Origin: Dictyostelium discoideum
Taxonomy: Eukaryota
NCBI GenBank assembly: GCA_000004695.1
Contig: CM000154.2
Location: 256,001 to 320,000 of the forward strand
Direction: 5' to 3'
Length of the DNA: 64,000 nt
Part shown: piece by piece, positions 1,909-25,959 of the stretch
Layout: every line of letters starts with the position of its first letter
Numbering within the stretch: the first letter of the stretch is position 1
Position numbers and translations under genes: made by a program
Notes under the pieces: model-generated
Databases searched by the model: none
What the model saw: only the letters and a program-made list of their open reading frames with translations
What the model was told of the DNA's origin: nothing

Positions 1909-3024
1909 TTATTTTGATTTATTTTTAAGTAAAAAAGTTGATCTAATTTTTGAGCCAATTAAAATTACTAAACGACCAATTCCTAATGCGAGTATGAATA
2001 AAATAAAAGCAATACCAACTCTATAGGATTCTTGAGTTAAATAAGAAAATTCGCCTAATGGTGGTGGGAATAACATATAGTTGATATTTGTACCACTTAT
2101 GAAACAAAAGATTTCAAATACAAAGAAATGTGAAATACCAAATAAACCTTGAGAAATTAATGCATATGGTAATTCAAATTCAATATTATATCTATAGGCT
2201 TGTAATAAAAATGGTGCAATTAATAATGCATAATGTTGAATGAAAAAATTATAACATTCAAATGGTAATGTTAAATCTGCTAAATCTGGTGCTACTAATG
2301 CTGCAATTCTTTTTTTTTTTTTTTTTCAATAATAAAATTAATAATTTATTTATTAATTAATTAATCTTTTTTTTTTTTTTCATCATTATTTATTTATGAT
2401 TTTAAAAATACTTACGTTACTAATATATAATAAATTGAAATTTTAAAAACTTTTCTACCAAATTGATAATTATTTGTAAGTAAACAATAACAATAGATTG
2501 TGCTAACAATATGACATGGTTGAAGCATAAAAAATACAACTCTCCAACCACGAAGACATTTATAAATAAGATTTAAAAAAACATTGATTGCTAAAATAAT
2601 TGCTACAATTTTATTTAATAAACTTGGATAATCTTTTTCTGGAATTGGTTTTGGTTTTCTTTGATTTTCATATTCTCTTTTTTTATTTAAATTAATTCCA
2701 ACTGTTTAGAAAAAAAAAAAAAAAAAAATTAATTTCAACACAAACACACCATTTAAATTTGGTTATTAATTTTATTTTTATTTTTATTTTTATTTTTATT
2801 TTATATTTATATTTTTTTATTTATATTTTTTATTTATATATTTTTTTTATTTTTTTTTTTTTTTTTTATTTTGATTACTTACTAAATATAACTACTAAAT
2901 AAAATAAATTCATAAATATAAATTCATATGCATGTTGTTCTTTTGAAAGGAACCAATGACGATGATCGATTGGGTCTGATATACTGAGAAAAGTTTCACC
3001 GATTACTTCAATTAAGTATTTCAT
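1909..3024 (-). CDS. Multi-pass membrane protein of unknown family. 3 exons: 2883..3024, 2416..2701, 1909..2308
   Basis: ATG at 3022-3024. GTAAGT donor after 2883 and GTAAG donor after 2416; AG acceptors at 2702-2703 and 2309-2310. Phases are consistent (1, 2) and there is a TAA stop at 1909-1911. The translation is dominated by hydrophobic segments (e.g. IAALVAPDLADLTLPFECYNFFIQHYALLIAPFLLQAY...GIAFILFILALGIGRLVILIG). Confidence 0.5.
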
Positions 3025-3921: not shown

Positions 3922-4566
3922 TTTTTTTTTTATTTTTTTTTATTTTATTTTTTTTTATTTGTTTTACAAGTTTTTATTTTTTATTTATTGTTTAAAATAA
4001 ATGAAATGAAAAATGGAAAAACGCCCCTTAAATAACAAAAAAATAAAAAAAAAAAGAAAACAAAATCAAAAACAAAAACAAAAAAAAAAAAAAAAAATTA
4101 TAATAAAAAAACAAAAGAAAAAAAACAAATTAAATATCTTCACCATTTTGTTTCTTTTTTTTTTTTTATTATAATAAAATAAAAAGATATTTTTTTTTTA
4201 TGACAGGTTAAAACAAGGTTTCATCAAAAATATCTTTTTTTATTTTTTTTTTAATTTTATTATTTTTTTTTTTTTTTGGATTCAAAAAAATATCCTAAAA
4301 AAAAAAAGTAATTTCAGAGAAAACTTAAAAGTAAATATTATTTGGCTTTAAATTTAACTAATGACACATAACATCAAATTACATCATCTGAGAATCATTT
4401 TTTCTGATACCAAAAAATTAATAATTTAAATTAAACACTTAAAAAAAAATAGTGAAAGTTTTTAAAAAAAAAAAAAACAAATTATATATTAATCTTTTAC
4501 AATTATTATAAAAAAAAAGTGTTTAAATTATTTATTTATTAATTTATTTTAAAAATTTTACTTCAA

Positions 4567-4598
<32 letters not shown>

Positions 4599-7594: not shown

Positions 7595-10500
7595 AACATA
7601 TTTCCATTTTTTTATTTTTATTTTTTTAAAGGTGAATATTATAATAACAAGTGAAAAAACTATTTTGGAAAATAAATTTCCAGTTAATACTGCAACCAAA
7701 TTGGGTATAGAGATAATTGATTATGAAACTTTATCAAGAGATATTGAAAGATTTATTAGAAAAACTCAACCAACATCATCAAATGGTTCAACATCAACAA
7801 CAACAACAACAACAACAACAACACAAAAAGGTCAAATTGTATCATTTAAACCAACTTCATCAACCTCAACAACAACAAATGTAATTAATACAACAACAAC
7901 ATCAACAACATCAACAACAACAATTGTTGATCCAATTATATCATTAATAGTACCACCATCAGGTAGTAATAATGGATCATTTCAAATTGCAATATTTGGA
8001 ATTGGATTTTTAGCAGGAGCAGGATTTAGAATTAAAATTGGTAATGATAATGGTGGTGGTGGTGTTTTTGCAAGTAATTATGAATTTCATTCAAGTACAT
8101 CAGTTTTATGTACCATACCAAACTTAAATATTAAATGTGGTCAACAACCAATTTATGCAAGTAATGATGGTGGTAAAACTTTTGGATTTCCAATTCAATT
8201 TTTATTCTTTGACACATCAATCCATAGAATACCAACAGCAAGAGAACAAGATGGTATGGTATTAAAGAGTCAATTGGATAATTTAAAGAGAGCCATTTCA
8301 AATATTCAAACTATGGAATCAATTCTAATGAGACGTATTTCATTATTGAATGGTAATCATGATGATAGTAAATCAATTGAACAGATTTTCATTCAACAAC
8401 AAAATTTCATTGAAAGTGGTGCATCACAATTATTACTTGGTAATGGTGGTACCACCGATCAATTGTTACAAAGTCTTGAGGGTTCAGAATATTCAAGTAC
8501 AAACGATGATGGTGAAAACGATCAATCAGACGACGATGACGACAATGAAGATGATGATGATTTCGTTGAAAAGAATTCAAATCAAGTTAAAGAAGAATTT
8601 TCAGAGAGAGAAATTAAAATATTTATTTCATCACCATTTAAAGATATGCAATTGGATCGTGACCAAATTGTAAAGGTCGTAATACCAAGAATTAGAAAAC
8701 TTTGTATTGAAAGGGACATTGTATTGAGTTATGTCGATCTTAGATGGGGTGTAACAAGTAATCAATCTGAACAATCCACTGGTTTAAGTATGTGTTTGAA
8801 AGAATTGGAGAAATGTAATATTTTAATTGGTTTATTTGGTGAACGTTATGGTTGGTCATCGCAAGAGAAACAAGATCCAAAATCACAACAATTACTTCAA
8901 TCAACATTAGATCGTGCAATTCAAGATTTCCCATGGGTAAAGAATTATCGTGATTCAAGTATCACTGAAATTGAATTTCGTATGCTTTTGAACCAAAGAC
9001 AACAACAAAGAAATGGTTTCTTTTATTTCCGTGATCCATACTATCTCGAGGAGGTTAGTCAAATGGATAAAAATAATTTCGTTTCAGAAGGTCAAAGATC
9101 AAAAGAGAAACTTGAGAAACTTAAACAAGAAATCATTAAATCACCCTTTAAATCATCGGAATATCGTCGTCCAACCAATTTATCAGATGTACTCTATGAG
9201 GATTTAGAGAAATATATTGATAAAAAATATCCATCTGGTAATTGTGAATTAAAAGGTTTTGAAAAAGAACGTTTCTTACATTCAGTTTTCATTAAAAATT
9301 TAACAAAAATTTATATTACAAATGAAAATTATTTTATGGAAATTGATACTTATTTATCAGGAAGTGCTACTAGTAGTGGTAGTGGTAATAAAAGTATTTC
9401 AATTGGTTCAAGTATTAATAGTGGACTATTATCATCTTTAAAAAATAAACCAGTATTTTTAATTCAAGGTGAAAGTGGTTCAGGTAAATCATCATTAATT
9501 AGTAATTGGTTAAAACAACATAAAGAACAACATCCAGAAGATTTAGTTGTATCACATTGGATTGGTGCATCACCAAGTTCAAATAAATTTACATCAATTT
9601 TAATTAGAATTATGAATGAAATTAAAAATCAAATTGAAATTGATCAAAAGATTGCCAATGGTGGATCAAATTCCTCATCGTCATCGTCATCATCAATGTT
9701 TTCAACCACTTCAACATCTTCTGTATCATGGTTACCAGAAATACCAGATGAAACATTTGAAAGTGAAAAAATTGTTTCAGAATTCCCACAATTTTTACAA
9801 TATGTAATGTCACATCCATCATTGAATGGTAAGAGATTAGTATTGTTAATTGATGGTTTAGATAAATTAGATCCAAGAGAGAATAGTCAAGAGTTAATAT
9901 GGTTCCCAAGAAATTTCCCTCATAATGTAAAGGTTATTGTTTCATCGATTCAAGGTAGTAGACAAAGTGAGGTTCTAAAGAAGAGAGGATCTCATATTCT
10001 TTCGATTTTACCATTCACTGAAGCTGAAAGAAAATCAATGGTACGTTTATACCTTCAAAAATATGCAAAGAAATTATCAGATCAACAAGAGATTGCAATC
10101 GCTATTTCAAAATCAACAACAAATCCAAGATTCCTTCAATTACTTCTCGATGATATTTTGGTATTTGGTGATTACGAACGTTTAAATGACCGTATTAAAA
10201 CTTTACTTCGTGCAAAGAATACAAGTGAACTCTATGAAATCATTTTAGACCGTATTGAAAAAGATTATGATCCAAAAGCAAAGGGTTTAGTAAGTGAATT
10301 CTTAAAATACATTTGGGCCGGTAGAAGAGGTGTTGAAATGTCTATGCTTTCAACATTACTCTTGAAAAAGAATATCGATCCAGCTGAATGGGGTTCATTA
10401 TTGGTATTGATGGAAGCTTATATCACTTCTTCATCGGGTGTTATCTCTTTCCTTAATGATGATATTTCAAAAGCTGTCGAAAAGAAGTATATTACAACTC

Positions 10501-12910: not shown

Positions 12911-12920
12911 GATTCGAACC
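12911..12920 (-). promoter_or_regulatory. Extra B-box (exB, GGTTCGAATC) about 52 bp downstream of tRNA-Met
   Basis: The revcomp of gattcgaacc matches the pol III B-box consensus GGTTCGANTCC. External B boxes downstream of tRNA genes are a known Dictyostelium feature. Confidence 0.45.
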
Positions 12921-12971
12921 AATGACTCTGGATACGAAGTTCAGGAGTTTGAATTTCAGCAAAAAAAAAAT

Positions 12972-13043
12972 GTCAAGTCAGAGGATCGAACTCTGGACCT
13001 TAGGATTATGAGACCTACGCTCTACCAACTGAGCCAACCTGAC
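12972..13043 (-). tRNA. tRNA-Met (anticodon CAT), elongator type
   Basis: Minus-strand 72-nt cloverleaf: GTCAGGT T GGCTCAGTTGGTAGAGC G TAGGT CTCATAA TCCTA AGGTC CAGAG TTCGATC CTCTG ACTTGAC. The acceptor stem pairs 7/7 (one G-U), the anticodon loop is CTCATAA and the T-loop is TTCGATC. G1:C72 and the TTCG T-loop argue for elongator rather than initiator. Confidence 0.85.
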
Positions 13044-13071
13044 ATGTTGATGTTTTTGAAAAAAATTTGCA

Positions 13072-13156
13072 CGATAACATTTTACATCAGATCGAAAAAA
13101 ACAAACAACAACAACAATCTCTTTTTTTGATTATTTCATTTTTCATATAAAAAAGA

Positions 13157-13191
<35 letters not shown>

Positions 13192-14897
13192 GGAACCAAG
13201 TTAATTAGAAAATTTCCAGATTTTTAACTTTTTAAAGAAAAATAAAAAAGATAGAAAGAAAATAAAATGAAAATCACAAACAACACCACAAATATTAAGC
13301 AACACAAATGCCTACAAAAAATAAGCGAAATTGTGGATAAAACTCAATTAAAAAAAAAACAATTCAAATACGTCATAAACATCAATCACGAACCAGACGA
13401 TAAAATAAAAAAAGATTTAGAAAAAAGTTTGGACAAAAAAGATGTTTTAATCAAAAGTAATAATACATTCAAAATTCTCACAGACAGTATTAGTACAGTA
13501 ATCTATTTTGTAAATATGTTTGATGCAGAATTAAAAGGACAATTTATAACCACTATAAGACCAAAAAATATGTATACAGATTTTGATTGGTATAAATCAC
13601 TCACAGAAATAGAATGGGTAATAGAAAATGAAGGATGTAAACTAATTAAATCAGAAATTAAAGGCGAAACTCTAATTATCAAAACAGTGAAAAGAGTCGT
13701 AGAAGAATTTGACACTATCATTGAACTAGACAATCTAACATTAATTGGACACTCCAACAAAGGATGGAGAGATCAAACCTCATTACCAGAAAATCAAGAA
13801 GAAAACAAAAATAAAAAACAATCAGATGAACAACAACCACAATCTACATCAGAACAAATACCAAAACAAGGAAAAAGAACAATCATTATCCCACCAATCA
13901 CATCCTCATCTAATGATAAAACATTTATGGCCCTAGATGATACAGCTCAAAAGGTAATAGAAGCATCACTAGAAAACGTAGATGAACTAACAAGAATAGA
14001 GAATGAGATCAATACACAATCGATAAACAATCAAGAAATTAAAACAAAATCAGAAAAACCTATCGAACCACCATCTCCATACAATACACCAATAAAACAA
14101 CACGGCGAAACAAAGGGACTAACAACGGAAGAAAAACTTAGAGAGGCAAATGATATCTTCGACTTCACCAGCCCAAACACTGATGCAATAAGAAAAATAG
14201 AATTCCCACTTTCAATCCCTTCAAATCAATGGTTCTTCTCCTCTCCAATAAAACATATCATGAGTTTCAGCCCAACCTATGGTACACCATCGAAAATTAT
14301 CGATTCACCAAGTAAATTGTTAAACACACCAAAAAAGAAACAACAAGACAAAACAAACAAGACCAACAAAACACCAGTCAAACCAAAATTGGGTGAATAT
14401 GGACAAAAAAGCATAAAAACAAAAATGGATGAAGATATAGACAACTTCAACAAGGAAATTCTAAAACAAATCAATAAATCAAAAAACCCCACAAACACAC
14501 AAGACCAACAACACAACGAACAAAGTAAAGATCAGTTAGAAGACAAAATAAACCAGAAACTTCAAAAGGTAGATAAAAATCTACCCCAAATAAAACTATA
14601 AAGAAAAACACAATAAGAATAGGTGTTTGGAACGTCCAAGGATCCAACACCATCCAATCTGCCAGCATAATAAACACCGTTTTAGACAACAACAAGCTGG
14701 ACGCAGCACTTCTAACTGAAACAAATATAAAAACAAATAAAATTTACTCAATAAATCAACAATATAAAAACAAAATAACACACCACGCACCAATTGATAA
14801 AACAGGACAAGGGGTGTCACAAATCATCATCAACACCCGCAATAGAACTTCCTAAACATCTCAAAAAATACAATAATTCACTCAGTACTTTCTATAA

Positions 14898-14939
<42 letters not shown>

Positions 14940-15257
14940 CAAGTTAATCAGAAAAATAAAAAAGATAGAAAGAAAATAAAATGAAAATCACAAACAACAC
15001 CACAAATATTAAGCAACACAAATGCCTACAAAAAATAAGCGAAATTGTGGATAAAACTCAATTAAAAAAAAAACAATTCAAATACGTCATAAACATCAAT
15101 CACGAACCAGACGATAAAATAAAAAAAGATTTAGAAAAAAGTTTGGACAAAAAAGATGTTTTAATCAAAAAGACCCTGTAAAAAAAAAAAAAAAAATAAA
15201 ATGAGATCTAGCATCTCAAGGAGAAGCAAATAATAATTGCGTTATCCAATTCAAAAA
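13072..15257 (+). mobile_element. TRE5-A (DRE) non-LTR retrotransposon, internally deleted (TRE5-A.2-like): 5' region, ORF1, ORF2 start joined to ORF2 3' end, oligo(A), B-module, C-module, oligo(A)
   Basis: - Intact ORF1 at 13267..14601 (MKITNNTTNIKQHKCLQKISEIVDKTQLKKKQFKYV...).
- 14600..14760 encodes the start of the ORF2 endonuclease (IGVWNVQGSNTIQSASIINTV...).
- From about 14760 it jumps to the last ~130 nt of ORF2, identical to 23290..23390 (...IELPKHLKKYNNSLSTFYK*).
- An A-tract follows, then a repeat of the element's 5' region including the ORF1 start (14981..15181, the B-module).
- The C-module agaccctgtaaaa...gcgttatccaattc(A)n ends at 15257.
- The element sits head-to-head immediately upstream of tRNA-Met, the canonical TRE5 position. 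Confidence 0.75.
13267..14601 (+). CDS. TRE5-A ORF1 protein (444 aa)
   Basis: Continuous ORF. Its first 67 codons are repeated at 14981..15181 (3' B-module) and, degenerate, at about 23520..23700. Confidence 0.7.
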   Translation: MKITNNTTNIKQHKCLQKISEIVDKTQLKKKQFKYVININHEPDDKIKKDLEKSLDKKDVLIKSNNTFKILTDSISTVIYFVNMFDAELKGQFITTIRPKNMYTDFDWYKSLTEIEWVIENEGCKLIKSEIKGETLIIKTVKRVVEEFDTIIELDNLTLIGHSNKGWRDQTSLPENQEENKNKKQSDEQQPQSTSEQIPKQGKRTIIIPPITSSSNDKTFMALDDTAQKVIEASLENVDELTRIENEINTQSINNQEIKTKSEKPIEPPSPYNTPIKQHGETKGLTTEEKLREANDIFDFTSPNTDAIRKIEFPLSIPSNQWFFSSPIKHIMSFSPTYGTPSKIIDSPSKLLNTPKKKQQDKTNKTNKTPVKPKLGEYGQKSIKTKMDEDIDNFNKEILKQINKSKNPTNTQDQQHNEQSKDQLEDKINQKLQKVDKNLPQIKL

Positions 15258-15352
15258 AAAAAAAAAACATTTTACATTAATAGGGATTTTTAAATGTGTT
15301 TACAATTTGTAATTATAATAGAACATTTTCGTTATAACCCAGATTTTTTCAA

Positions 15353-15404
15353 AGTTGGACCTAATGATCTTGAGGCTACGCTCTAACAACTGAGCCAATC
15401 TGAC
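15353..15404 (-). pseudogene. Truncated, mutated tRNA-Met 5' half with the same 28-bp upstream flank as the intact tRNA-Met
   Basis: Minus strand gtcagattggctcagttgttagagcgtagcctcaagatcattaggtcca matches tRNA-Met positions 1 to about 48 with about 8 substitutions (anticodon loop destroyed) and no T-arm. The 5' flank atgttgatgtttttgaaagaaaatttgca (15405..15432) repeats 13044..13071. Confidence 0.55.
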
Positions 15405-15706
15405 ATGTTGATGTTTTTGAAAGAAAATTTGCAAAAAACCAGAGTCAAATAATCTTTTTTTTGGAAATGGATATTTATTTTTTATTATTATAAAAAATTT
15501 TCAAAAATTGACAGCTTTTTTTTATAAAAAGTCAAAATAAGGAAAAATAGTCATTTGTTTTTTTTTTTATTGAATTAAAAAAAGTTGATAATTTTAAATA
15601 AATGTTTAAAATATGTTTAAAATCATTTATGTGATATTATTAGAAAGGATTTTTAAAAATAAAAATGAAAAATTAAATTAATAGTTATTCGGTCAAATAA
15701 TCTTTT

Positions 15707-18055
15707 TTATTGTGTGGTTGAAATTTTTTTAAATAATTTTTTATCAACTATTGGAAAAATGTGGTAGGGGTAAATATCGTTTTCATAAATTTCAGTCCTT
15801 TTTAAATTATTATCTGAAAAAATTCTAATCATTTCTAAATAATTTGGGTGTTTTAAAAGGGTTTTTTCATTGTTTTCAAAAAATTGGTAATTTGTACTAT
15901 GAGTAAATATTAATAACTCTTTTTCTTTTTGTTCTTGTTGTTCTCCCTTTTCTTTTTCGTTTTCATTTTCATTTTCATTTTCATTTTGATTTTTATTTTC
16001 ATTTTCATTTTCATTTTCATTTTCATTTTCATTTTCATTTTCATTTTCATTTTCATTTTTATTTTTATTTTCATTTTCATTTTCATTTTCATTTTTATTT
16101 TTATTTTTATTTTTATTTTTATTTTTATTTTTATTTTCTTGTAATAATGGAGGATAATTCTTTTCAAAAGTTGGTAAACCACGAATAATTAAAAATTTAA
16201 TTGAATCTGGTAATGATTGAGAATATATTTTTTGAGTATATTTTCCACCCAACTCTAAAAGAGTTAAAGATTGTGGAAAGTAATCTTTTTTTAATATCTT
16301 ATTAAAAGAAACACCAAAATATAATGATTTTAAATTATTTGGTAAAATTATAATTGGTTTTCTATATAAAATACTTGATTTTCGAGGATATAAAGCTTGA
16401 ATATATTCTTTTTGTCTTTCAATTAATAAAGAACTATCGATTGAATTTGTTAAAGATGTTGAAAAATCACCACTAATATTATCAATTAATAAAATTTCAA
16501 CAGTTGATGGTAATAATAAATCATTTGAAAGCATTCCATTAAATTCAACTTTTTTTAATTTTTTACAACAATCATCATCAGTTATAATCAAAGGTTTTGA
16601 AAAATTTTTACCAAATGATAAATTTGTTAAATTTGGTGGTAATTGGTCTTGGTAAACTATATCATTGAAATGTTCAACAAATTTTAATTTTTCAACTGAT
16701 GATGGTAAATATTGTAATTGTTGAGTACTAAAACTATGAAATGATTTTAAACCAAATGAAATTGAACCTTCTTTAATAATAAATTTTGGTGAAAGTCTTA
16801 ATGTTTTTAAACTACTTGGTAGCACACCTGGTTCAATGATTTGTGTTGATTCTCTATTATAATTTGAATCCAAATGACCAACTACAAAATAAAGTTTAAC
16901 TAAATTTTTTGAAAATACACCAACTGATAATTTTTGGTTCCAAAGAAAATCAAATTTTAAAATTTTAACACTATCTGGAATCAATGGTTCACCAGTGTTG
17001 TCATCTAAAAGTTTTTGATTAAAAATATTTTTAAAAACTAATTTATTTAAAGATGATGGAATTGAACCAACTTTTAAAGGTAAATTAAAAGCTGGGTTCA
17101 TTCTTAGTAAAGTTAATGAATTTGGTAATACATTTGGTTCAATTGATTGTTTAAATGTATGCCATTCACATGACTTTGTAAATTTTAAAGATTTCAATGA
17201 AGATGGTAATTGTTTTAATCCAATTGGTTTTGAAAAACATTCAGGTAATGTTAATTCTGTAATACTCGATGGTAAATCGCCAACTTTAAATTCTTGATCG
17301 AAATACCCATCATCATGAAATGATAATTTCGTTAGAGATTTTGGTAAACAGCCATTGCCATCGGTATTGCTTAATGGCGAATTAAATTGTTTATTAATTA
17401 ATAATACCTCCAATGAGATTGTATTTGATAATAGAAATAAATCACCAGTTGGTTCTGAAATATTAACTCTACCACCACTACCTAAATAAAGTCTTTTCAA
17501 AGTTGATGGTAAACTACCAACTTTTAACTCTGAACATCCATTATGATGTAGTTCCTCCAATCCCATTGGTAATAAACCAATTGTAATCTCATTTAAATTT
17601 TTTTTACCCCAATCTAAAATTTTCAAACCATTTGGTAATTTATTGATTTTAAATTGAAATAAATTATCAAATTTTAAACTTGTTATTGAATTTGGTATTT
17701 TAATTAAACCATTTGTAAACATTGATTGTAACTCTAATTGATTATCGATATAAAATCTCTCACTATCATTTCTAATTAATAATTCATTAATATTATTTGG
17801 TAAATAATTAATTTGGTTAAATAATTTCATCATTTTTTCATAATCTTTTTCTTTTTTTTTAAATAAAATTTCAATTGATTTTTGATTTTTAAATCCATTA
17901 TTACTTTTATTTAATAATTTAATATTATTATTACATGTTATAGTTTTTGTAAAATAATGTATTTTAATTATTTGAATAAATTTAATAATTTTTTTTTTTA
18001 AAAAAATATTTCTCCAAATTAAAAAAAACAATTTACTATTATCATTTTCATTCAT
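15707..18055 (-). CDS. FNIP-repeat-containing protein (782 aa)
   Basis: Single long ORF with about 15 repeats of the LPxSLxxLxFGxxFNQ(P)L type, e.g. LPSSLKSLKFTKSCEWHTFKQSIEPNVLPNSLTLL and FGKNFSKPLIITDDD. This is the FNIP repeat family, which is greatly expanded in Dictyostelium. A C-terminal (NK)n(NE)n dipeptide microsatellite is encoded at 15960..16140. Confidence 0.75.
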   Translation of the reverse strand: MNENDNSKLFFLIWRNIFLKKKIIKFIQIIKIHYFTKTITCNNNIKLLNKSNNGFKNQKSIEILFKKKEKDYEKMMKLFNQINYLPNNINELLIRNDSERFYIDNQLELQSMFTNGLIKIPNSITSLKFDNLFQFKINKLPNGLKILDWGKKNLNEITIGLLPMGLEELHHNGCSELKVGSLPSTLKRLYLGSGGRVNISEPTGDLFLLSNTISLEVLLINKQFNSPLSNTDGNGCLPKSLTKLSFHDDGYFDQEFKVGDLPSSITELTLPECFSKPIGLKQLPSSLKSLKFTKSCEWHTFKQSIEPNVLPNSLTLLRMNPAFNLPLKVGSIPSSLNKLVFKNIFNQKLLDDNTGEPLIPDSVKILKFDFLWNQKLSVGVFSKNLVKLYFVVGHLDSNYNRESTQIIEPGVLPSSLKTLRLSPKFIIKEGSISFGLKSFHSFSTQQLQYLPSSVEKLKFVEHFNDIVYQDQLPPNLTNLSFGKNFSKPLIITDDDCCKKLKKVEFNGMLSNDLLLPSTVEILLIDNISGDFSTSLTNSIDSSLLIERQKEYIQALYPRKSSILYRKPIIILPNNLKSLYFGVSFNKILKKDYFPQSLTLLELGGKYTQKIYSQSLPDSIKFLIIRGLPTFEKNYPPLLQENKNKNKNKNKNKNKNENENENENKNKNENENENENENENENENENENKNQNENENENENEKEKGEQQEQKEKELLIFTHSTNYQFFENNEKTLLKHPNYLEMIRIFSDNNLKRTEIYENDIYPYHIFPIVDKKLFKKISTTQ

Positions 18056-18269: not shown

Positions 18270-18270
18270 A

Positions 18271-18352
<82 letters not shown>

Positions 18353-18935
18353 AGAAATTAAATTTAATTTAAATATAAATGAAGAAAAAGATGATGAGAT
18401 TAAAGATTTATATAAAGTTATTGAATCATTAAAAAAAGAATTATTTGAAAAATATAAAGAAAATTTATTATTAAAAGAGAATTTAGACCAGGAAATAGAA
18501 TTTAATAAAGTATTAAAATTTGGAATGTTTGAAAAAAATAAAGAATTTGAAATATTAGCTACTCAATTAGGAATTTTAAAATCTAAATATGGAAATAAAA
18601 AATGTGATATTGAAGTTATAATCATTAGTAGTGATGATGAAGATGATGATAATAAAAATAAAAACCAATTAAAAGATATAACCACTACCACTACCTCCTC
18701 CACCACCACCACCACTACTACTACCTCTACCACCACTACTAATAATAGCTCTTCTGAAAATAATTTCGATGATCAAAATAAAGAAGAAGTTGTTTTTTGT
18801 AAACCTTATAACCAAAGTGATAATGATGAAGATTCTAAAAATAATTCAAAAGATTTAGGTTATAATGAAAATAATATTGGTGGTGATGCAACAGTAGGAG
18901 AATATAACTCTTATGTTGTTAAAAAAGAAATGTAA
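18270..18935 (+). CDS. Low-complexity acidic protein with polyN, a candidate SUMO-interacting motif (VIIISSDDEDDD) and a Thr/Ser run
   Basis: 221-aa ORF beginning with a 26-residue (AAT)n-encoded polyN. The middle is coiled-coil-like and KE-rich (LYKVIESLKKELFEKYKENLLLKENLDQE). The coding status of this Dictyostelium-style low-complexity sequence is moderately supported only. Confidence 0.4.
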
Positions 18936-22610: not shown

Positions 22611-22683
22611 TGCTCGATGCAGGGATCGAACCTGCGACCGTGGCGTTATTAGCACCACGCTCTGCCGACTGAGCTAATCGAGC
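22611..22683 (-). tRNA. tRNA-Ile (anticodon AAT)
   Basis: Minus strand GCTCGAT TA GCTCAGTCGGCAGAGC G TGGTG CTAATAA CGCCA CGGTC GCAGG TTCGATC CCTGC ATCGAGC A. The 7-bp acceptor stem is perfect and the anticodon loop is CTAATAA. I recognise it as nearly identical to metazoan tRNA-Ile-AAT. Confidence 0.9.
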
Positions 22684-22731: not shown

Positions 22732-23389
22732 TACAAATTCATACCAACTCCTGGCCAAAAAGAAATAATGACCAAAATTAATAGCAAACACCTTCCATTT
22801 AAAGAAATCAAAAAAATAATAAACATGAAAGGTAGAGATCTATTATGGAGATACACACTGAAAGCACTACCAAAAATATACAACATGCCATGCCAACAGT
22901 GTGGGGAAGATGAGACTTCAGAACATATATTCTTCAACTGCAAAGCCCACATCAAAAACACACAAGAAATCTTCAACTACACCCTAACTAAGTGTGGACA
23001 CACCACTCACACCTGGAATGTGAAGATTTTAAACCATCTACAAATTGCACTAGTAGCCAATTTAATAGCTATTATATTCGAAAAAATCTGGCACAAAAGA
23101 AATAAACTCATTCACGATGAAAAAGAAATAATAATTCACAGACAACAAGTAATACGTGAACTAATTAAAACACAAATAGCTGCATGGGACAGGACACAAG
23201 CGGTTATAAACAAAACATTAAGAATCAAATCAAAGCAACGGCCAGAAGAACAAAATAAATTAGACTCACTAATCTCGCTAAAGCTATTACAATTTAGCAG
23301 ACAATGGAACTCACCTCTTCACGCAATAGAACTTCCTAAACATCTCAAAAAATACAATAATTCACTCAGTACTTTCTATAAATAAATAA

Positions 23390-23435
<46 letters not shown>

Positions 23436-23729
23436 GGAACCCAAGTTAATCAAAAAATTTCCAGATTTTTAACTTTTTAAAGAAAATTAAAAAAATTAGA
23501 AGGAAATTAAATTGAAATTCACAACCACCCCCACAAATATTAAGCACCACAAATGCCTACAAAAAATAAGCGAAATTGGGGATAAAACTCAATTAAAAAA
23601 AAAACAATTCAAATACGTCATAAACATCAATTCCGGACCCAGACGATAAAAAAAAAAAAAATTTTAAAAAAAGTTGGGACAAAAAAAATGTTTTTATCAA
23701 AAGGAAAAAACCCATTTAAAATTTGGCCC

Positions 23730-23784
<55 letters not shown>

Positions 23785-24784: not shown

Positions 24785-25084
24785 TGGAACTGGACAATTA
24801 AAATTTCATTCAATTTGAAATTAAAACTATTTGAATGGGATAGAACATTTAAGAAGAATGGAAATAAAAAATTCTCAAATAGATCTTACGTGGAAGATAA
24901 TGAATAAGTTGGAAAAGTTTATCCACGAATTCACAACTGATGAAAACTTATGTACTGAACATTTAACCCTTTATTGCTCTTTCAATACTAATTGTTTAAA
25001 TTCAAACAATACATATATATATAATACTTAAATAAAAATAAATGTAAATAGGACACATCTTAGCTTGGGATGAGTCATTAAAAA

Positions 25085-25160
25085 AAAAAAAAACTTTTAA
25101 AATACAAAAATCTCAAAGAGAAGCAACTAATAATTGCGTTATCCAATTCAAAAAAAAAAA
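25085..25160 (+). mobile_element. Isolated TRE5-A C-module 3'-terminal fragment with oligo(A)
   Basis: atctcaaagagaagcaactaataattgcgttatccaattc(A)20 matches the C-module end at 15200..15257. A second tail-like copy (gagttatccaattcg(A)9) lies at 25252..25275. Confidence 0.5.
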
Positions 25161-25959
25161 AAAAAAAAAGCATTTTAAAATACAAATTGAGATCCAATTC
25201 AAATAAAAAGGTTTTAAAATACTAAATGGATCAAGAGAAACAGATCAGCTGAGTTATCCAATTCGAAAAAAAAAGTTAAAAAATACTTTTTTTTTAATGA
25301 TTTTGTTAGGGCAATGTTTAATTCCAACAGGTAAAGTTAAAGCAGAAGCATTAAGAAGGTAAATCTAAAGGATCAAAAAATTTTTTTTTGGTATTTTTGG
25401 TGACAAAAGATTTAAACCATTGTGATAATATTGGTTGTGCATTTAGTTTTGGAATGATTGTTAAGATCGCAGCCATGAATCAAATTATCACCAAAATTCA
25501 CCTAACTATAGAACGTATTGATAACTTAAATGAAAATAATGGAGGTCTTTTAAAATGTATTTAGAGTTGAAACCATTGGTGAGAGGTCCTCTTGAAAATA
25601 TGACAACCACTCATGCAACATAAAGTTCCAAATGTTAAATAAGAAAAATCCGGTCATATTTAAATACAATCAAGTTATGGCTGTCCGCAATGCAAAAAAA
25701 TCAAAATATTGGAAAATAGTTTCCACTACCGGCGAAATAAGAGTTTGAGACTTACTTCGAGGTTTCATTCACCTTCTCAAGCCCGGTTGTGATGCTAAAA
25801 ATGCTTCTTTGTCCAACGCTGGTCATTTTGGATTAAAATTTTATTATGTACTTCAAAGGAAACACCGGAAAAAAGTATATTCTAATTGTAGATAAAATTT
25901 AAAAATAAATATGAATTCATTTTAATTAATTTTTTTTTTGAATGGATAAATAAAAATCT

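Follow-up and report, generated by a model that had tools for sequence, protein, structure and literature searches.

In Dictyostelium discoideum, the closest described counterparts of the locus presented here are a family of tRNA-associated retrotransposons and a heterogeneous group of short tRNA-derived sequences. TRE5-A.2 (formerly DRE), a non-autonomous non-LTR retrotransposon, is defined by two deletions, one of ORF2 and one of ~72 bp in the B/C-module region, after which ~87 bp of the C-module are left (PMC3159450), and the element is reported to be still active (PMC4559204, PMC3159450). Integration takes place upstream of tRNA genes, within a window of 47+/-3 bp (PMC5391098), and generates target-site duplications of 10-16 bp (PMC9012585). 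An external B box (exB), for which a consensus has been published, is typically located ~41 bp downstream of tRNA genes (PMC3159450). With regard to tRNA debris, tRNAscan-type annotation lists three pseudogenes (PMC13063481), and our literature searches turned up no account of tRNA half-fragments in Dictyostelium.

The 64-kb window (i.e., the whole stretch of D. discoideum DNA analysed here) contains a locus that resembles several of these systems at once (Table 1). Its retrotransposon shares with TRE5-A.2 the AB-ORF1-BC layout, the ORF2 deletion and a ~70-nt deletion in the B/C region (PMC3159450), as well as the head-to-head site at -45, a target-site duplication of 11-12 bp and an oligo(A) tail (PMC5391098, PMC9012585). 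Unlike TRE5-A.2 copies at three other loci (L001-L003), which carry from one to eight or more tandem A-modules, the window copy has lost all of the ~199-bp A-module except its last 73 bp. Beyond the element lies a half-tRNA that resembles truncated tRNA pseudogenes derived from local segmental duplication, in that it is a DNA-level copy that includes flanking sequence, has a sharp intragenic breakpoint, lacks a B box and decays neutrally; it differs from them in being a 5' fragment in tandem orientation, only 122 bp upstream of its intact parent. A 5' fragment of this kind would be expected to be missed by tRNAscan-type annotation. Like the exB and 3'-half tRNA copies of Dictyostelium, it is a short tRNA-derived sequence beside its parent gene; however, exB and 3' fragments carry a B box and can bind TFIIIC and attract TRE elements, whereas the present fragment is a 5' part without a B box. 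The half-tRNA fragment shows no sign of being a TRE target. In our reading, two unrelated events, i.e., an old partial duplication and a very recent TRE5-A.2 insertion, are very probably superimposed at this one tRNA-Met locus.

Table 1. Features of the tRNA-Met locus, with positions as counted in the window.
Feature	Position	Strand	Basis or remark
External B box (exB), GTTCGAATC	12911-12919	-	Matches motif GTTCRAnYC; 51 nt downstream of tRNA-Met
Elongator tRNA-Met(CAU), intact	12971-13043	-	ARAGORN; Rfam RF00005 tRNA, 64.8 bits
Internal B box of tRNA-Met	12983-12991	-	Within intact gene
5' flank of tRNA-Met (flank part of repeat copy 1; full copy 1, 12994-13071)	13044-13071	-	Alignment and repeat search
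Target-site duplication, left copy, (A)ACATTTTACAT	13076/7-13087	.	Single copy in L012
TRE5-A.2 non-autonomous non-LTR retrotransposon	13088-15266	+	99.2-99.4% to L001-L003 copies
A-module remnant, 73 bp	13088-13160	+	Last 73 bp of 199-bp unit in L001
5' B-module	13161-13456	+	Part of TRE5-A.2
ORF1, 444 aa, intact	13267-14601	+	Starts inside 5' B-module
ORF2-deletion junction	~14838	+	Comparison with full-length copies
3' B-module	~14899-15170	+	Part of TRE5-A.2
Shortened C-module and oligo(A)	15171-15266	+	Part of TRE5-A.2
Target-site duplication, right copy, ACATTTTACAT	15266/7-15277	.	Single copy in L012
Unique spacer	15278-15355	.	Empty-site sequence of L012; orthologous in L015, L017, L018
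Truncated decayed copy of tRNA-Met positions 1-50	15356-15404	-	Alignment
Copy of tRNA-Met 5' flank (flank part of repeat copy 2)	15405-15433	-	One C more than copy 1

The window was compared with a near-identical D. discoideum assembly (L012), with four further D. discoideum-group assemblies (L015, L016, L017 and L018, of which L016 is the most distant "cf. discoideum" strain in the comparison) and with D. citrinum; the loci of the other strains were reached through a homologue search with the TPR protein and its cluster list. Coding identity to the window was 100% for L012, 97.9% for L015 and L017, 96.4% for L018, 95.6% for L016 and 90.3% for D. citrinum, and the tree order used below is taken from this identity to one reference in one gene, which is not a proper phylogeny. 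The neighbouring gene at the tRNA-Met locus is DDB_G0287407. Exact-protein look-ups with the neighbouring ORFs at 15707-18055 (-) and 18270-18935 (+) returned no match, which points to differing gene models, the FNIP gene being called as a 740-aa product in L012; a homologue search with the FNIP protein returned D. citrinum and D. firmibasis only, the D. discoideum orthologue not being among the results. D. firmibasis is uninformative for dating because its locus is rearranged, with no tRNA-Met beside either neighbouring gene.

The element is assigned to TRE5-A.2 because its module layout and its two deletions fit the published description (PMC3159450). Over ~2.19 kb, its identity to the copies at L001, L002 and L003, which are located at other tRNA genes, is 99.2-99.4%, and its ORF1 protein is identical at at least nine places in GCA_054883475.1 among the matches listed (11 contig matches). 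The match to full-length copies runs to 14838, which corresponds to position 9190 of L002, upstream of the called ORF2, and restarts after the deletion 63 nt before the ORF2 stop (L003 3897); in addition, 70 nt (L003 4273-4342) are missing between 15170 and 15171. The two B-modules contain a perfect 221-nt direct repeat (13236-13456 and 14950-15170). The full ~200-bp A-module promoter is absent, so that this copy is probably without most of its promoter; the absence represents a 5' truncation and gives no ground to exclude the copy from the TRE5-A.2 family. An internally deleted TRE5-A with an intact ORF1, in the canonical head-to-head position upstream of an intact tRNA-Met with an exB downstream, is what the original prediction had described, and each of these elements was borne out.

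With +1 of the tRNA-Met gene at 13043 and the first base of TRE5-A.2 at 13088, the element stands at position -45 on the opposite strand, inside the reported integration window, and its target-site duplication likewise falls inside the published range. At the orthologous site in L012, the duplicated sequence is present as a single (A)ACATTTTACAT at 15679-15690, with two BLAST alignments that overlap by 12 bp, and the 600-nt stretches up to 13087 on one side and from 15278 on the other are exactly adjacent, meeting between 15690 and 15691. Over ~8-18 kb, the window and L012 differ nowhere except for the insertion. The element was found at this site in none of L012, L015, L016, L017 and L018, and the intergenic regions of the last four, at 0.8-0.95 kb, are without it. 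The insertion is recent and canonical, and among the strains compared it was seen in the window's strain alone. The 5' junction, with a truncation inside the A-module, shows a 2-nt microhomology (AT). By analogy with the TRE5-A literature, this non-autonomous element would have been mobilised in trans by TRE5-A.1 proteins, directed to the -45 site by the TFIIIC/TFIIIB complex, and inserted there, 45 bp upstream of the intact tRNA-Met, by target-primed reverse transcription.

A gapped alignment confirmed a direct repeat, in which 15356-15433 matches 12994-13071 at 70 of 79 columns; the repeat comprises the 28/29-nt 5' flank and tRNA-Met positions 1-50, with an ungapped core of 54 nt at 93% identity (repeat search, family D5). 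When both strands of the entire window were scanned, the half-tRNA copy scored 109, compared with a median tile of 21 and a best unrelated match, a cross-match to tRNA-Ile, of 55, while the flank alone scored 49 against a background maximum of 31; the distal copy is the sole copy of its kind within the 64 kb. Chance similarity is excluded because the copy scores far above the rest of the scan. The mutated tRNA-Met copy with its 28-bp 5' flank that the original prediction had placed beyond the element is thus real, and the prediction was also right that this is more than chance AT-rich matching and far too big for a target-site duplication, the actual duplication being 11-12 bp. Two of its figures need correction: the copy exists but extends to tRNA position 50 rather than to about 48, and it does lie beyond the oligo(A) but at 89 nt, made up of 11 nt of target-site duplication and 78 nt of spacer, rather than about 95 bp. 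Before the insertion, the two repeat copies were separated by a spacer of 94 nt (13072-13087 plus 15278-15355).

The half-tRNA carries 7 substitutions and 1 deletion, and its anticodon loop is destroyed (CTCATAA to CTCAAGA); it keeps the A-box region and has no B box. ARAGORN did not call the distal copy as a tRNA, nor did Rfam even at E<=10, and the GTTCRAnYC motif was absent near it. A metagenome scan for the junction between flank and tRNA, CAAAAACATCAACATGTCAG, returned one unrelated chance match without a tRNA.

Comparison of the strains indicates that the half-tRNA is much older than the element. In L012, which has no element, it is already truncated and is base-for-base the same as in the window, and with its orthologous spacer it is also found in L015, L017 and L018; the four diverged lineages that carry it are 2-4% apart in the adjacent coding sequence. 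L016 and D. citrinum, by contrast, have one tRNA-Met gene each and no half-tRNA, although the half copy may have been lost in L016. Because presence and absence follow the ranking by coding identity, a single origin on one branch fits. AX4, L015 and L017 have four changes in the half-tRNA in common, and each lineage has further changes of its own; in L018 positions 42-50 are gone and the CAT anticodon is still there, and in L015 the distal flank is shorter by 11 nt. Orthologous half-tRNAs are 17-24% apart between lineages, and the AX4-L017 spacer divergence is ~17% by hand count. By comparison, positions 1-50 of the intact tRNA-Met gene, as far as compared, are identical across all D. discoideum-group assemblies, and the sole difference in the D. 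citrinum gene is a compensatory G4:C69 for A4:U69.

The arrangement is best explained by duplication of a segment of ~80-86 bp (about -30/-36 to +50) to a place roughly 100-200 bp upstream of tRNA-Met. The duplication would date from an ancestor shared by the AX4-like, ACTFIR/ACTFIW and ACTFIY lineages, the ACTFIZ lineage and D. citrinum having diverged earlier; judged from L018, the original repeat may have extended to about -33 to -36. The duplication could have arisen as a ~170-bp tandem duplication in which one breakpoint fell within the gene, or as a templated patch made in the course of repair. When the spacer was aligned in register with the sequence upstream of the distal copy, similarity in AX4 was weak (global score 12.5-13.5 versus a null of 2.5-2.9, sd 5.2-6.1; p 0.02-0.05), and in L018 it was not significant (p 0.22-0.26). 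Because it has no B box, the half copy is very probably a dead fragment; each lineage has since accumulated its own changes in it, at roughly the neutral rate. A foreign tRNA source for the clustered anticodon-arm changes of AX4 was considered and rejected, as the Met anticodon loop is still present in L018 and the changes build up step by step from lineage to lineage. An origin by 5' or 3' transduction or as a tRNA retro-copy was rejected as well, as the copy contains flank that is assumed to be untranscribed and predates the element.

The original prediction had offered two scenarios, the first of which was an ancestral tRNA-Met gene pair with the element inserted between the genes and one copy decaying later. 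Insertion between pre-existing copies holds, as L012 demonstrates; later decay does not, as the half-tRNA was truncated before the insertion and is also found in L015, L017 and L018, which never received the element. Spelled out in full, this scenario, in which a complete tandem pair once existed, the distal gene lost its 3' half and decayed, and TRE5-A inserted between the two, has the order of events right, both copies predating the insertion, and has parallels in this genome, where local tRNA duplicates with common flanks are frequent (e.g., at L005 a pair of tRNA-Val(AAC) genes that lie 2.1 kb from each other and have the same flanks, and at L004 three identical tRNA-Ser(GCU) genes within 6 kb). 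We nevertheless regard a complete pair as distinctly unlikely: homology in the window ends abruptly at +50, and what follows the distal copy resembles neither tRNA positions 51-73 nor the trailer (anchored p=0.56 and local p=0.96 in AX4), the +50 boundary is common to AX4, L015 and L017, a 3' half or B box is kept in none of AX4, L015, L017 and L018, and decay is already complete in the element-free allele. A full gene that suffered an early deletion is conceivable in a formal sense. Still less can be said for the view that the repeats were made by the element, whether through TRE5-A-linked recombination or rearrangement between flank copies, which was the second scenario predicted, or as a by-product of integration (an oversized target duplication or a transduction). 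Its appeal is one of geometry, i.e., direct repeats on either side of the element, and its probability is negligible, as the empty-site allele has both repeats in the same arrangement, strains that never held the element also carry the repeat, and between the repeats TRE5-A.2 is framed by a perfect target-site duplication of 11-12 bp, the two copies of which are identical, whereas the repeats are mismatched at 9 of 79 columns. The intact termini, the perfect target-site duplication and the precise empty site refute recombination between flank copies. An RNA-mediated origin from the tRNA transcript is also unlikely, given the 28 nt of flank, most of it assumed to lie upstream of the Pol III start.

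Retention of the distal flank and A-box half-tRNA by gene conversion or selection, as a cis element such as an upstream Pol III/TFIIIB-related site or a boundary element, is a different proposal, and one that we consider very improbable. The fragment has persisted in four lineages, and flank positions -1 to -22 are near-identical in all 8 copies from these lineages (paralogue distance 1/22), while the adjoining tRNA part of the half copy shows 16% changes and the half-tRNAs diverge as described above; moreover, a T at -10 that is private to L018 is present in both paralogues. Against a function, the tRNA part, with its A-box region, changes about as fast as the spacer, the deletions in L015 and L018 removed parts of the distal flank and half-tRNA, respectively, L016 and D. 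citrinum manage without the fragment, and the roughly twofold slower change of the flank (4-5 events versus 9 expected by our own tally; Poisson p ~0.05-0.1) is not significant. Occasional gene conversion or some constraint may nonetheless have acted on the flank. With an old partial duplication and a recent insertion, the bracketing of TRE5-A.2 by repeats is a coincidence of two ordinary events, the element having landed between the repeats because the old half copy lies only 122 bp upstream of the gene.

Beyond annotation, the importance of the locus is small. It offers a clean natural insertion polymorphism, with an empty allele, a filled allele and a target-site duplication, which agrees with the reported activity of the element, and it cautions that a mobile element need not have made the repeats that flank it. 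The half-tRNA series across five genomes also records the pace at which tRNA debris decays, along with exB turnover between strains, and could be used in a genome-wide study of the origins of tRNA-flanking Pol III elements in dictyostelids.

With regard to exB, the box is present in L012, L015 and L017; L018 and D. citrinum lack it, and L016 has another box in its place. The exB region and the T-arm of tRNA-Met have an 8-mer, TCCAGAGT, in common, which is not significant (p=0.06). A broader idea, which we put forward tentatively and think unlikely to be correct, is that recurrent local partial duplication of tRNA gene segments in Dictyostelium also seeds the exB downstream of most tRNA genes, with the half-tRNA as one visible product. 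The presence, absence or replacement of exB among close strains would fit this idea, as would a proximal flank that may have been homogenised with its parent by short-tract gene conversion. It would also fit an observation at L005, where, 54 nt downstream of the tRNA-Val(AAC) gene and beside exB-like boxes, positions 42-75 of this tRNA and 3 nt of its trailer recur as a perfect 37-nt copy.

The tRNA-Met gene considered here neighbors a TPR protein of 1663 aa that is 100% identical to DDB_G0287407 of D. discoideum strain AX4, and its 5' flank runs in the rightward direction in window coordinates. The original prediction that this flank, with half a tRNA attached, is repeated beyond the TRE5-A element upstream of the gene was confirmed by alignment, in which 70 of 79 columns are identical, far above background; the copy extends, however, to tRNA position 50 rather than about 48, and lies 89 nt, not about 95 bp, beyond the oligo(A) tail. 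In a whole-window scan this half copy was unique, scoring 109 where the median was 21; the flank by itself reached 49, and the background no more than 31. No B box was found in the half copy by motif search, the model-based tRNA searches run here missed it, and no mention of tRNA fragments of this type in Dictyostelium was found in the literature searched.

Features of the tRNA-Met locus and of older TRE5-A remnants (window coordinates)
Feature	Position	Strand	Remark
exB (external B box) of tRNA-Met	12911-12919		
tRNA-Met(CAU), elongator	12971-13043	minus	
Internal B box of tRNA-Met	12983-12991		
(A)ACATTTTACAT, first copy	13076/7-13087		beside element
TRE5-A element	13088-15266	plus	head-to-head with tRNA-Met
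(A)ACATTTTACAT, second copy	15266/7-15277		beside element
Half copy	15356-15433	minus	28-nt 5' flank + tRNA-Met positions 1-50
tRNA-Ile(AAU)	22611-22683		
Older diverged TRE5-A remnant	23322-23748		ORF2 end + B-module, 79-89% identity
Older diverged TRE5-A remnant	25080-25163		C-module-like piece, 84%

Comparison of the orthologous locus in other strains, as had been proposed, identified an empty site in L012 (GCA_054883475.1), a near-identical D. discoideum assembly whose locus was reached through the TPR protein. The intergenic region measures 1.0 kb in L012 versus 3.2 kb in the window; the 600 nt up to window position 13087 and the 600 nt from 15278 match exactly and abut directly (15690|15691), ACATTTTACAT is single, and the half-tRNA and its flank are already there, identical to the window. 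The repeats are thus older than the retrotransposon and not due to it. As no difference between the window and L012 was found over ~8-18 kb, apart from repeat-length differences elsewhere, the insertion must be very recent. No TRE5-A element is present at this site in L015, L016, L017 or L018, further D. discoideum-group assemblies from the TPR protein's cluster, and three of these (L015, L017, and L018) carry the half copy. With TRE5-A integration at about -47 and the half copy 122 bp upstream of tRNA-Met, an element inserting at this gene could only fall between the repeats.

These data bear on both scenarios offered previously. Recombination between flank copies is refuted by the presence of both repeats in L012 without the element. 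For an ancestral tRNA-Met gene pair with an insertion between its members and later decay of one, the order of events held up insofar as the copies pre-date the insertion, but decay after insertion is wrong, as the half copy is already identical in the empty L012 site, and a former full gene is unsupported: homology ends abruptly at +50, nothing like tRNA positions 51-73 or the trailer was found beyond the half copy (local p=0.96, anchored p=0.56), and the +50 boundary is common to three lineages. We thus favor a duplication that would have been partial from the outset over decay of a full gene.

Two routes to such a partial duplication appear equally possible. If a tandem duplication of ~170 bp had one of its breakpoints inside the gene, the spacer should be homologous to what lies upstream of the distal copy; weak in-register similarity was found there in AX4 (the window lineage; p 0.02-0.05), while the L018 spacer showed no similarity past about -36. 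Alternatively, a ~85-bp templated patch may have been copied during repair. An RNA-mediated origin is unlikely, as the copy carries 28-36 nt of flank assumed to lie upstream of the transcription start. The half-tRNA is, judged from sequence, a truncated tRNA pseudogene derived from local DNA duplication. Truncated tRNA pseudogenes formed in this way are a known kind of debris; the value of this case lies in its clean pair of filled and empty alleles and in a small, dated series that follows the decay of a tRNA fragment.

For this series, genomes were ranked by TPR-gene coding identity to the window: L012, 100%; L015 and L017, 97.9%; L018, 96.4%; L016 (the most distant "cf. discoideum" strain), 95.6%; D. 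citrinum, 90.3%; and D. firmibasis, 86.2%. The half copy and an orthologous spacer are present in L012, L015, L017, and L018; L016 and D. citrinum lack the half copy and have a single tRNA-Met in the same position and orientation, and in D. firmibasis no tRNA-Met was found beside either neighboring gene. On the simplest reading, a single duplication would have taken place once the L016 lineage had diverged but before L018 branched off. Four half-copy changes are common to AX4, L015, and L017 (T36A, A37G, C41A, A43T) and further changes are private to each lineage; L018 reads CTCATAG, with the anticodon CAT intact and positions 42-50 lost, and in L015 a deletion has removed 11 nt from the distal flank. 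Orthologous half copies differ by 17-24%, and AX4-L017 spacer divergence is ~17% (hand count); the half copy looks as if it decays as a neutral relic would. TRE5-A targeting needs a B box (PMC3159450), and the lack of one in the half copy agrees with the absence of an element upstream of it in any genome compared. This 0.4-kb stretch of intergenic DNA shows high indel turnover: compared with AX4 and L018, L015 and L017 have ~90 extra nt in the spacer between half copy and tRNA-Met and are missing ~125 nt on the upstream side of the distal flank, with TCAA(N)TTTTTTT microhomology at the deletion junction.

The eight copies hardly differ in the proximal 22 nt of the flank, and in L018 a private T at -10 is shared by the two paralogues, a possible sign of short-tract gene conversion or of constraint; the deficit of flank changes is not significant (4-5 events versus about 9 expected, own tally). 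The intact tRNA-Met gene shows no variation across the D. discoideum group. At acceptor-stem positions 4/69 (window 13040, 12975), all of these genomes have A4:U69 and D. citrinum (L010 12385-12459) has G4:C69, a compensatory change between species; the half copies have A4. The exB of this gene is not conserved between close relatives: AX4-like genomes, L015, and L017 carry GTTCGAATC 48-51 nt downstream of the gene, none was found within 130 nt downstream in L018 or D. citrinum, and L016 has a different exB, GTTCGACCC, at 29 nt, inside T-arm-like sequence (GTGGGTTCGACCCCGGGAC).

The element itself is, by sequence comparison, a standard TRE5-A.2 and not the product of a locus-specific deletion. 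Copies of this 2.19-kb sequence that are 99.2-99.4% identical lie beside other tRNA genes (L001-L003, loci in another assembly), and the 444-aa ORF1 protein is identical at nine places among the matches listed. Compared with full-length copies, the element lacks the ORF2 region, in a gap that begins ~54 nt ahead of the called ORF2 start and ends 63 nt short of the ORF2 stop (junction 14838), and it also lacks 70 nt between the 3' B-module and C-module; deletions of the ORF2 and B/C-module regions define TRE5-A.2 (PMC3159450), and the window copy has both. Only the last 73 bp of the A-module, a 199-bp unit found in eight or more tandem units in some other copies, are retained, and the copy is therefore 5'-truncated; its 5' junction shows 2-nt microhomology (AT). 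The first base of the element lies at -45 from tRNA-Met, inside the 47+/-3 bp window of natural and tagged integrations (PMC5391098), and the flanking duplication falls inside the published 10-16 bp (PMC9012585). The element is thus an ordinary TRE5-A.2 member whose behavior here fits every published hallmark. In the long-read assembly, A-module arrays of eight or more units (L001 3226-4882) or one to three units (L002 4440-4815 and 7030-7428, L003 4473-4812) each finish in the same 73-bp partial unit, followed by oligo(A) and the B-module, whereas the window copy has solely that 73-bp piece; no description of such tandem arrays in TRE5-A was found in the literature searched.

At another locus, L005, the tRNA-Val(AAC) gene at 2390-2464 has, 54 nt downstream, a perfect copy of its positions 42-75 plus 3 trailer nt (2303-2336, minus), flanked by two other exB-like boxes (GTTCGATTCC); a paralogous tRNA-Val (4495-4569) has the same two flanks without the fragment. 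Partial tRNA-gene duplication therefore occurs elsewhere too and can make B-box-bearing fragments. In L004, three tRNA-Ser(GCU) genes of identical sequence and orientation lie within 6 kb (2941-3023, 4476-4558, 8693-8775), and a TRE5-A.2 sits between the last two, another element bracketed by tRNA copies. Both older TRE5-A remnants in the window lie upstream of tRNA-Ile(AAU) and are common to the window and L012.
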